Notes under the pieces: model-generated
Database searches by the model: none
What the model was told of the DNA's origin: nothing
What the model saw: only the letters and a program-made list of their open reading frames with translations
DNA from: Escherichia coli
GTDB lineage: Bacteria > Pseudomonadota > Gammaproteobacteria > Enterobacterales > Enterobacteriaceae
Strand: one strand, 5' to 3'
DNA length: 64,000 nt
Assembly (NCBI RefSeq): GCF_003334255.1
Contig: NZ_QOWU01000002.1
Shown: positions 17,216 through 19,807 of the stretch, one piece after another
Layout of the letters: each line of letters starts with the position of its first letter
Numbering within the stretch: position 1 is the first letter of the stretch
Translations under genes and position numbers: made by a program

Positions 17216-18127
17216 ATGCTGTGGTTCAAAAATTTAATGGTTTACCGTCTTAGCCGCGAGATTTCGCTGCGTGCAGAAGAGATGGAAAAACAGCTAGCCT
17301 CGATGGCATTTACCCCATGCGGCAGCCAGGACATGGCGAAGATGGGCTGGGTTCCTCCGATGGGATCGCACAGCGATGCGTTAACGCACGTTGCCAATGG
17401 TCAAATTGTTATCTGCGCGCGCAAAGAAGAAAAAATCCTCCCGTCTCCGGTGATTAAACAGGCGCTGGAAGCGAAAATCGCCAAACTGGAAGCGGAACAG
17501 GCGCGTAAGCTGAAGAAAACCGAAAAAGATTCGCTGAAAGACGAAGTGCTGCACTCTCTGCTGCCGCGTGCTTTCAGCCGTTTTAGCCAGACAATGATGT
17601 GGATCGACACGGTTAACGGTTTGATTATGGTGGACTGCGCCAGTGCCAAAAAAGCGGAAGATACGCTGGCATTACTGCGTAAAAGCCTGGGGTCGTTACC
17701 GGTTGTACCATTGAGCATGGAAAACCCGATTGAACTGACGCTGACCGAATGGGTTCGCTCCGGTAGTGCGGCACAGGGCTTCCAGCTGCTTGATGAAGCC
17801 GAGCTGAAATCGTTGCTGGAAGATGGCGGCGTGATCCGCGCGAAGAAACAAGATCTGACCAGCGAAGAGATCACCAATCACATTGAAGCCGGAAAAGTGG
17901 TGACTAAACTGGCGCTCGACTGGCAGCAGCGCATTCAGTTTGTGATGTGCGACGATGGTTCGCTCAAGCGTCTGAAGTTCTGCGACGAGCTGCGCGATCA
18001 AAACGAAGATATCGACCGTGAAGATTTCGCCCAGCGTTTTGATGCCGATTTCATCCTGATGACTGGTGAACTGGCAGCGTTAATTCAAAACCTGATTGAA
18101 GGATTAGGTGGCGAAGCACAACGTTAA
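17216..18127 (+). CDS. rdgC: Recombination-associated protein RdgC
   Basis: In-frame ATG at 17216 gives 303 aa, [27 protein letters not shown]. Confidence 0.92.
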
Positions 18128-18146
18128 TTGCTGATTTTCCTTTAAT

Positions 18147-18184
18147 GCCGGATGCGACGCCTGCCGCGTCTTATCCGGCGTACG
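18147..18184. repeat. REP element downstream of rdgC
   Basis: GCCGGATGCGACGCCTGCCGCGTCTTATCCGGCGTAC, an imperfect palindrome matching REP. Confidence 0.65.
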
Positions 18185-18284
18185 AAGCCACACCAGGCAT
18201 ATAATTATTCGCTACGGCGAGCAATAATTTTTAGCGCAGCAATATTATGCGTTTTACGCTGTAACTTGCTCCATGGACGTTGTG

Positions 18285-18566
18285 TCATTGTTTTTCCTCA
18301 AGCCGGTGACGCGCTTCACTGCGAATTTTCCGCGTTGCCCCGGTTTTCACTAAATCACGTAACAGCGAAAGATCGGGTTGTTCGACAAATAAGAGTAATG
18401 ATGGATCCTCTTTTAACCACGCCGTTTTCACATCGGCAGCCAGCTGTGGATTATTAATAGCCAGCGACCGATCCTGAGGCTCAGTCAATGTCGTTAACAA
18501 CAACGCCGGGGTATGTGCGTTGCGCAATGCCGTTTGGCGTAAATGATCATTGCGACTTTGCAGCAA
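18285..18566 (-). CDS. Hypothetical small protein, possibly the positional equivalent of ykiA; start uncertain
   Basis: 93-aa ORF, MLQSRNDHLRQTALRNAHTPALLL, that begins with TTG; no ATG or clear SD; may be non-coding. Confidence 0.3.
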   Translation of the reverse strand: MLQSRNDHLRQTALRNAHTPALLLTTLTEPQDRSLAINNPQLAADVKTAWLKEDPSLLLFVEQPDLSLLRDLVKTGATRKIRSEARHRLEEKQ

Positions 18567-18773
18567 TGCACGCCACCATTCATCATCTGATTTATCTTTT
18601 ATCGTAGCCAGTTCCGCAACAATATCTGGAGATCTTCACTGATATTTATATCAACCTTGATAAATTATGAATATATCGGAAATTGAAAAAATCGCAGCAA
18701 AGGAAATATTATTATGGGCTAAAGAAAGGATATTTCAGAAAAATGCCCTCCCGTTCAAGGGGAAGGCGAGGAA

Positions 18774-19058
18774 TTACAGATAGCGGCACAGATAAGAGGT
18801 GGGTTCGGCAACTTGCAGATGAAACTCACTGTGACCGGGAACATTAAACACCGAACCGGCTTCATACACCTGCCAGTCGGTCGCGTCAGGCAGTAACACA
18901 TTCAGCGCGCCACTGATTACCGTCATCTCTTCCGGCTCAGCGGTGCTGAAGGTGTATTCGCCTTCAACCATAACACCCACGCTGGCGCGACCAGTGCTGC
19001 TGCTGGAAAAGCCGATTGATTTCACTTTGCCGGAAAAGTACTCATTACTTTGAAGCAT
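18774..19058 (-). CDS. ppnP: Pyrimidine/purine nucleoside phosphorylase PpnP (YaiE, cupin fold)
   Basis: 94-aa [40 protein letters not shown]. Confidence 0.9.
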
Positions 19059-19129
19059 AAACTGGCCCTGTTTGGTAGTTGAACATCTACTTCACTATAG
19101 GGGCCAGAGGCGCTGGCTGTCACGCAAAA

Positions 19130-19807
19130 TTACACCAGTAATTCCGCAGCCAGCCGTGCAATCAATACGTTAGACAGCAAGACAGGAACATCGAGCTGTT
19201 TTTGCAGTAAATCGCGATGACGTTGGTGAAATCCTAAACAATCCAGCATGATGACATCAGCCCCTTTTGCCAGTAATTCTTTCCCGGCATCAATGATTTT
19301 TTGTTCTGAATCATGAATGGGGTTACCCAATGAAAATACCGGCGATTTCTGCAAAATTTGCCATTTTTGCGCCTGAACGGGCAGCATCTCCTCAACCGGA
19401 ACGATAACCCCCACCTGATGATCTTCAACAATAGAGGAAACCAGTGGAGGCAATATTCGCGACGGCTCAAGAAAGATCGTATTACGCGCAGTCATACTAC
19501 TAATGTTTGCTGTACTCATTAATAAAATGACGTCATAACCCTGATTATCGAGCACTTCAACCACACCTTGCAGGTCACGCTCCACTTTGCGACGCGAAAC
19601 ATGGGCCAGCTGGTTGTCATTTAATAATGTGAGAATGGTGTCTTCGCCTGCTTCTGGCGCGTACTCCGCCATCACTTCTTCACGACTTAACTTCCCCAGC
19701 AGGCTATGATGGGAAATATTATCTTCGTCAATGTATTCCGTCAGGAGCGGCAAAACTTCCTGCATAGGTACAATGCCGATGGTCAGGATCGCCAACGACG
19801 CACTCAT
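19130..19807 (-). CDS. aroM: AroM family protein (function unknown; part of aroL-yaiA-aroM)
   Basis: 225-aa [30 protein letters not shown]. Confidence 0.88.

Follow-up and report, generated by a model that had tools for sequence, protein, structure and literature searches.

The gap between rdgC and ppnP in the stretch of Escherichia coli DNA analysed here (the window: 64,000 nucleotides of contig NZ_QOWU01000002.1, assembly GCF_003334255.1) is, with a probability that we put at roughly 0.9, what decay has left of a locus of two genes that a minority of E. coli strains still carry intact. This remnant consists of the pseudogene ykiA and the 27-amino-acid protein YkiD. The locus is already annotated, as a known pseudogene beside a known small protein, and as such it is ordinary, of little biological weight, and neither a new gene nor a small RNA (sRNA) locus. 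What is added here is incremental: the anatomy of the deletions at the level of single bases, the origin of YkiD, the coverage of the DUF2773 model and what kind of protein the full-length parent is. Homology, junctions, frequencies of the alleles and relaxation of constraint are shown by the present analysis; for the activity of the promoter and for YkiD as a detected product we rely on the literature.

Identity of the remnant and the three deletions

The local gene order is mak - rdgC - gap - ppnP - aroM, and the region is of the E. coli K-12 type. The gap measures 646 bp (18128-18773, between the end of rdgC at 18127 and the ppnP stop, which begins at 18774), and not the approximately 590 bp given in the first-pass annotation. 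A 93-amino-acid, TTG-initiated open reading frame (ORF) had been flagged there on the minus strand, and it is present exactly as described (18285..18566). It was said to have neither an ATG start nor an obvious Shine-Dalgarno sequence, and both statements stand, the only Shine-Dalgarno-like sequence being a poor GGTGG located 6 nt 5' of the TTG. The frame stays open in the 5' direction up to 18626, which gives 113 codons, in agreement with the 113 amino acids quoted for ykiA where its length is given in PMC3950696. In RefSeq genomes in which the gap is 100% identical, the equivalent of 18285-18626 is annotated as a pseudogene of a "DUF2773 domain-containing protein", incomplete and with its N-terminus missing, and the equivalent of 18205-18288 as "protein YkiD"; ppnP is annotated in them as well. 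The suggestions that the position matches that of ykiA and that the sequence could be a pseudogene remnant are thereby borne out, the former also by PMC6001520, which places ykiD between ykiA and rdgC.

When the gap was shuffled, 7.5% of the resulting sequences contained an ORF of at least 93 amino acids, and ORF length by itself is weak, non-significant evidence. The ykiA ORF is real because of its homology: the 113-residue frame aligns with all 81 positions of the Pfam model PF10971 (DUF2773; E = 4.5e-46), and BLASTP aligns it with residues 647-759 of an intact 759-amino-acid protein at 105/113 identical positions (93%, E = 3e-70). The ppnP-rdgC synteny of the DUF2773/ykiA locus is found in the window as well as in the genomes with an intact locus. 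With its start codon and codons 1-356 and 363-650 deleted, the frame represents a pseudogene fragment of the family and not an intact DUF2773 gene.

The intact locus occupies the same rdgC-ppnP site in the O157:H7-like strain FORC_044 (locus L004) and in ETEC6335, where the gap is 2,953 bp long and contains a gene for a 759-amino-acid "DUF2773 domain-containing protein" and one for a 149-152-amino-acid "SF0329 family protein", both on the minus strand and overlapping by 4 bp. Aligned with L004, the window resolves into three collinear blocks (18000-18266, 18257-18626 and 18632-19100, with 98.9%, 95.7% and 97.4% identity, respectively) and an internal match of 18 nt (window 18615-18632, L004 2744-2761). 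Three deletions are delimited by these blocks. Deletion A, of about 1070 bp, extends from the T preceding the ATG to codon 357, so that the ATG is removed, and left the junction GAAGAT|CTCCAG at 18632/18631. Deletion B is in frame and comprises 864 bp (288 codons); it is bounded by two copies of the repeat motif of the large protein itself, GATATTGTTGCG (codons 359-362) and GATATTTTTGCG (codons 647-650), of the form GATATT(G/T)TTGCG, a 12-nt near-repeat found at window 18626-18615. Deletion C, also in frame, took 372 bp (124 codons) out of the SF0329 gene, with AGTTACAGCG and AGTTACGGCG as its borders, at 18266-18257. Together with a 1-nt indel, the three deletions account exactly for the full length difference of 2,307 bp. 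They cost the large gene its start codon and 646 of 759 codons (85%), and the small gene 124 codons.

Deletion, and not insertion, is the parsimonious direction of change, because what remains of the two ORFs in K-12 is collinear with them and is joined up at short repeats, and also because a full-length gene is present at the same site in Escherichia sp. E4930 (73% identical) and there are dozens of full-length relatives. An exhaustive HMMER search rendered 169 cluster representatives (E <= 1e-3), of which dozens are full-length at 735-819 amino acids, and many clusters contain relatives of 750-800. A further type of allele, L003, has junction A and the hybrid repeat of junction B in common with the window; in it the remainder of the ykiA tail is gone as well, and its SF0329 gene is full-length but frameshifted.

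The deletions spared the ykiA promoter, as indicated by the 97% identity of the retained upstream region, which includes the 5' untranslated region (5' UTR), to the region 5' of the intact gene. This region is AT-rich (G+C content of 29-33%), and in a scan it contained one candidate sigma-70-like site, CTGAAA-16-CATAAT, at 18738..18711. In the passages of PMC3950696 that deal with ykiA, a lacZ fusion of its promoter was activated by BglJ-RcsB, as one of ten promoter fusions that each showed 4- to 73-fold activation; the transcription start was mapped by 5' rapid amplification of cDNA ends, and a binding site mapped by mutagenesis was centred 79 bp 5' of that start. Thus ykiA is listed in the BglJ-RcsB regulon, yet in K-12 its promoter drives a dead gene, and the intact target belongs to O157-type strains. 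Table 1 of the same paper lists molR (yehH) as also disrupted in K-12, so that at least two of the ten characterised BglJ-RcsB promoters drive decayed genes in the laboratory strain.

The history of the locus would be as follows. An ancestral gene for a 759-amino-acid protein would have been followed by an SF0329 gene of about 150 codons overlapping its stop, and three deletions between short repeats would have led to the K-12-type sequence. The promoter and the 5' UTR being spared, the locus would still be transcribed into an mRNA whose first ca. 340 nt correspond to the start-less ykiA tail, from which translation would be unproductive. With the start codon and 85% of the codons of the large gene gone, that tail would be a pseudogene drifting near-neutrally. 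The small gene would have kept its Shine-Dalgarno sequence, its ATG and an in-frame stop, and these signals would still drive the translation of a 27-amino-acid stump, YkiD.

The start of ykiD overlaps the stop of the ykiA frame as ATGA and is preceded, 7 nt upstream, by a good GAGGA Shine-Dalgarno sequence. YkiD corresponds to residues 1-11 and 136-151, fused in frame, of a 151-amino-acid Shigella SF0329 protein (P0007). Its 27-residue sequence is identical to the entry in Table 1 of PMC6001520 (VanOrsdel et al. 2018), and the flanking genes, ykiA and rdgC, are the same; according to the ykiD passages of that paper, YkiD was seen as a chromosomally SPA-tagged protein and its gene lies between ykiA and rdgC. 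YkiD matched no NCBIfam family, and thus it stays below the SF0329 cut-off (NF049912 / PF25753), as a derivative and not a member of that family. Among eight alleles of the remnant it varies at 4 of its 27 positions, and in 4 of the 7 alleles other than that of the window the stop is moved by one codon (26 vs 27 amino acids). We infer that YkiD is without function. Although validated by experiment as a "new small protein", it is the in-frame stump of a gene of 150 codons, and detection of a product does not imply a function.

Constraint across alleles and competing readings

A search of 5,426 complete E. coli genomes with the 653-bp gap sequence matched 5,425 of them. The K-12-type remnant was found, with at least 80% of the query covered, in 4,544 genomes (ca. 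84%), and the intact locus, at the same coverage, in 444 (ca. 8%); most of the remaining genomes are of an SF0329-only type. At least 80% of the SF0329 gene together with the neighbouring 3' (C-terminal) portion of the large gene was covered in 501 genomes, as compared to the 444 in which at least 80% of the whole locus was covered. An intermediate allele combining the ykiA tail with an intact SF0329 gene was sought and none was demonstrated, the single extra genome that was inspected having a fully intact locus. Two insertion sequences were also observed: an IS1 inside the ykiA remnant of one strain (NZ_CP103515.1), and an element of the IS3 family within a DUF2773 gene that is otherwise intact (NZ_AP027963.1).

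The window was compared with seven divergent alleles of the remnant, which are 93-98% identical to the query sequence and all have the same three junctions. In the ykiA frame these eight alleles show 15 synonymous and 26 nonsynonymous variable-site events, and the ratio of nonsynonymous to synonymous rates (dN/dS, omega) is 0.57-0.87 for kappa from 1 to 6, with which neutrality is not rejected (binomial p = 0.06-0.39). For the intact gene, omega between O157 and E4930 is 0.12 overall and 0.24 across the same 113 codons. In rdgC and ppnP, 65-codon pieces taken from the same strains differ by 0-4 synonymous and 0-1 nonsynonymous changes, the mis-registered ppnP comparison of L013 being disregarded. 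These values fit a relaxed, near-neutral evolution of the ykiA remnant, weak constraint being also compatible with a sample of only eight alleles. A dN/dS comparison had been proposed as a check of the ORF; among these alleles it yields values indistinguishable from neutral, and the poorly expressed small protein proposed as one possible identity is not upheld as a bona fide gene, given this range of omega and the deletion of the start codon and 646 of the 759 codons.

Some observations weigh against a simply decaying locus. The 113-codon frame is open in all eight alleles, where about 1.9 stops would be expected by chance (the probability of none being ca. 0.15); the only indel inside the ORF is an in-frame deletion of 3 bp, present in three alleles, the other indel found nearby being a 1-nt insertion 5' of the TTG in one allele; and the point estimates of omega are below 1. 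Some constraint may persist weakly, or the frame may be translated, with the TTG or a near-cognate ATT as its start. It could also be the case that recombination with intact alleles has pulled omega down.

A possibility that we consider improbable is that the transcript driven by BglJ-RcsB has been co-opted, either for YkiD, as a 27-residue fusion of the first and the last SF0329 helices, or for a free-standing peptide of leucine-rich-repeat-variant (LRV) repeats translated from the TTG, and that the product takes part in the Rcs response to envelope stress. If true, co-option would account for the frame being open in every allele examined.

To the idea that the ykiA tail encodes a small protein in its own right, expressed weakly and with 93 amino acids from the TTG or about 112 from the near-cognate ATT, in which a single LRV-repeat module has been kept for a function of its own, we give little credence. 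The open frame, the in-frame nature of its sole internal indel and the values of omega below 1 would be expected of such a protein, the TTG codon is kept in all the alleles, and the sequence is transcribed from a regulated promoter (in the ykiA passages of PMC3950696). However, the frame has no ATG or GTG start and no Shine-Dalgarno sequence other than the poor GGTGG; 85% of the protein has been lost, as has its signal-peptide-like N-terminus; omega is neutral-like, far above that of the flanks and of the intact gene; lineages of the L003 type have lost the whole tail yet kept the neighbouring gene; and in one strain an IS1 lies within the remnant.

It is very unlikely that the locus persists through a new function of YkiD or of the ykiA-ykiD transcript, as a small protein or a regulatory RNA induced by BglJ-RcsB. 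The strong Shine-Dalgarno sequence of ykiD, the translation of YkiD reported in the ykiD passages of PMC6001520, and the presence of the remnant, with the same junctions, in ca. 84% of the genomes would be in keeping with such a role, but an old, vertically inherited deletion explains the high prevalence, YkiD is a mere in-frame stump of a larger protein whose sequence varies at 4 of 27 positions and whose stop moves among the eight alleles, and no known RNA family matched. Finally, a plain non-coding spacer that carries the ppnP terminator and an unannotated sRNA, with the ORF arising by chance, can be practically discarded, since the homology of the ORF to the 759-amino-acid protein is unambiguous and contradicts it, and neither an Rfam match nor a promoter-terminator pair bounding an sRNA was found, in spite of the frequency of such ORFs in the shuffled gap, the real ppnP terminator, and a promoter-like site on the plus strand at 18683-18712.

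Terminator, putative REP element and other features of the gap

The features of the gap and its flanks are collected in Table 1. The ppnP terminator that had been suspected in the gap is there, as an 8-bp, G+C-rich stem followed by a T-run. Its hairpin starts 7 nt past the ppnP stop and folds with -15.0 kcal/mol (z = -3.0), and the structure has the properties of a Rho-independent terminator. An sRNA, which had been suggested as well, did not emerge: no Rfam family reached its gathering score, and a promoter/terminator scan found no pair that would delimit one. At permissive E-values, Rfam 15 rendered no sRNA family over 17900-19300, its sole match being the REP-derived naRNA4 on the element described below, at 27.8 bits and thus below the gathering score of 59.5.

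Table 1. Features of the rdgC-ppnP gap and of its flanking genes, in window coordinates.
Feature	Position	Strand	Remarks
rdgC (flank)	17216..18127	+	
Putative REP-type palindromic element	18133..18180	.	between convergent rdgC and ykiD; stable hairpin on both strands
ykiD, 27 amino acids (MTQRPWSKLQRKTHNIAALKIIARRSE)	18205..18288	-	ATG ORF; RefSeq name "protein YkiD"; in-frame stump of SF0329-family gene
Junction C, 10-nt repeat AGTTAC(A/G)GCG	18257..18266	-	junction reading against intact locus
ykiA pseudogene	18285..18626	-	113-codon open frame, ancestral residues 647-759; 93-amino-acid TTG ORF nested at 18285-18566
Surviving 17 nt (CTCCAGATATTGTTGCG) of ancestral codons 357-362	18615..18631	-	holds junction B; borders junction A
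Retained 5' UTR and promoter region of ancestral DUF2773 gene (ykiA promoter)	18632..18744	-	97.4% identical to L004 upstream region
ppnP intrinsic terminator	18735..18767	-	hairpin 18767-18745, 8-pair stem, 6 G-C pairs, then T-run ATTTTTCTGA
ppnP (flank)	18774..19058	-	

A repetitive extragenic palindromic (REP) unit is an imperfect palindrome of ca. 35-40 nt, of the type GCCGGATG...CATCCGGC, located between convergent genes. The palindrome GCCGGATGCG...CGCGTCTTATCCGGC at 18133-18180 resembles, we assume, a unit of this kind; it folds with -25.8 kcal/mol (z = -4.1) and -23.5 kcal/mol on its two strands.

The 93-residue ORF is not, as had been stated, the only sizeable one in the gap, which also contains an ATG-initiated ORF of 101 amino acids on the plus strand (18152..18457), longer than the former and antisense to ykiD and ykiA. 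It was rejected as spurious: it starts within the putative REP element, and stop codons break it in 4 of the 7 other alleles. Another ORF, of 38 amino acids (18667-18783, plus strand), has an ATG but no Shine-Dalgarno sequence, lies in the AT-rich ykiA promoter region and points into the 3' end of ppnP; in the same region, also on the plus strand, there is a sigma-70-like site, TTGAAA-18-TATTAT (18683-18712). Both are probably chance features of AT-rich DNA.

The parent proteins and comparison with known systems

The 759-amino-acid protein begins with a hydrophobic, signal-peptide-like stretch, MNRINILVICMVLFFMTGNACA|TEW, as read from its sequence, which suggests that the ancestral large protein was exported. 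AlphaFold2, run with an alignment of 40 sequences, rendered a confident model (predicted local distance difference test score, pLDDT, 91.5; predicted template modelling score, pTM, 0.80) with a predicted beta-helix at residues ca. 68-176 and a predicted alpha-solenoid of the LRV type from ca. 240 to 759. The profile of the full-length family matches 1LRV, an LRV structure, with E = 7e-13, and at E <= 0.001 there are matches to Pfam LRV or LRV_2 in 4-6 of the 40 members; Foldseek, run on the model, retrieved only generic HEAT/ARM scaffolds. From this predicted architecture, the large protein may have acted as an exported binding scaffold.

In the intact O157 protein, PF10971 matches residues 679-759 (E = 1.5e-39). 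The DUF2773 model of Pfam thus spans no more than the C-terminal 81 residues, which K-12 has retained in its pseudogene; full-length members have about 760 amino acids. PF10971 scores higher on the K-12 fragment (155 bits) than on the intact protein (134 bits; L004 1550-3829), a pattern that suggests that the family was seeded on pseudogene fragments.

The SF0329 neighbour in O157 scores 93.7 bits with NF049912, against a cut-off of 60, and matches PF25753 with E = 4.8e-22. SF0329 is widespread and unusually conserved, with 56-68% identity in homologues labelled as Prevotellaceae, Paenibacillus and Bradymonadia, and these homologues are located in unrelated contexts with no conserved gene neighbour. 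An extra A in an A-run of the O157 allele (L004 1104-1160) leads to the C-terminus ...KNYCPP* and a slightly damaged end, whereas YkiD of K-12 (window 18205-18260) and the Shigella protein P0007 keep the end of the family consensus, ...KIIARRSE. NCBIfam held nothing for the large protein, for the ykiA frame or for YkiD, and PADLOC gave no matches for either ancestral protein and hence no sign of a defence system. A toxin-immunity or otherwise obligate pair, an idea prompted by the ATGA overlap, was rejected: E4930 has the large gene without SF0329, a 49%-identical homologue of the large gene stands alone between sprT and a gene for a major facilitator superfamily transporter, and SF0329 homologues occur in unrelated contexts.

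Among known systems, the parent protein resembles 1LRV of Azotobacter vinelandii and the Pfam families LRV and LRV_2 in its family profile and in the long alpha-solenoid of its model. It differs from 1LRV in adding a signal-peptide-like N-terminus and a predicted N-terminal beta-helix (68-176), and presumably in lacking the Fe-S domain, and the K-12 remnant retains only the last few repeats. The remnant itself does not differ from K-12 ykiA (b0392), annotated as a DUF2773 pseudogene by RefSeq and its annotation pipeline PGAP: the position (ppnP - ykiA - ykiD - rdgC) and the 113-codon frame are the same, and the locus in the window is that locus. Beyond the identity in amino acids and flanking genes of the small protein with YkiD as published, the origin of YkiD by deletion within an SF0329 gene is added here, the ykiD passages of PMC6001520 being silent on its origin. 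The closest parallel to the locus as a whole is molR (yehH), a BglJ-RcsB target given as "disrupted in K12" in Table 1 of PMC3950696, where a regulated promoter has likewise outlived a decayed coding region. It belongs to another gene family, however, and at ykiA each junction can be reconstructed to the single base, as intact alleles still segregate in the species.
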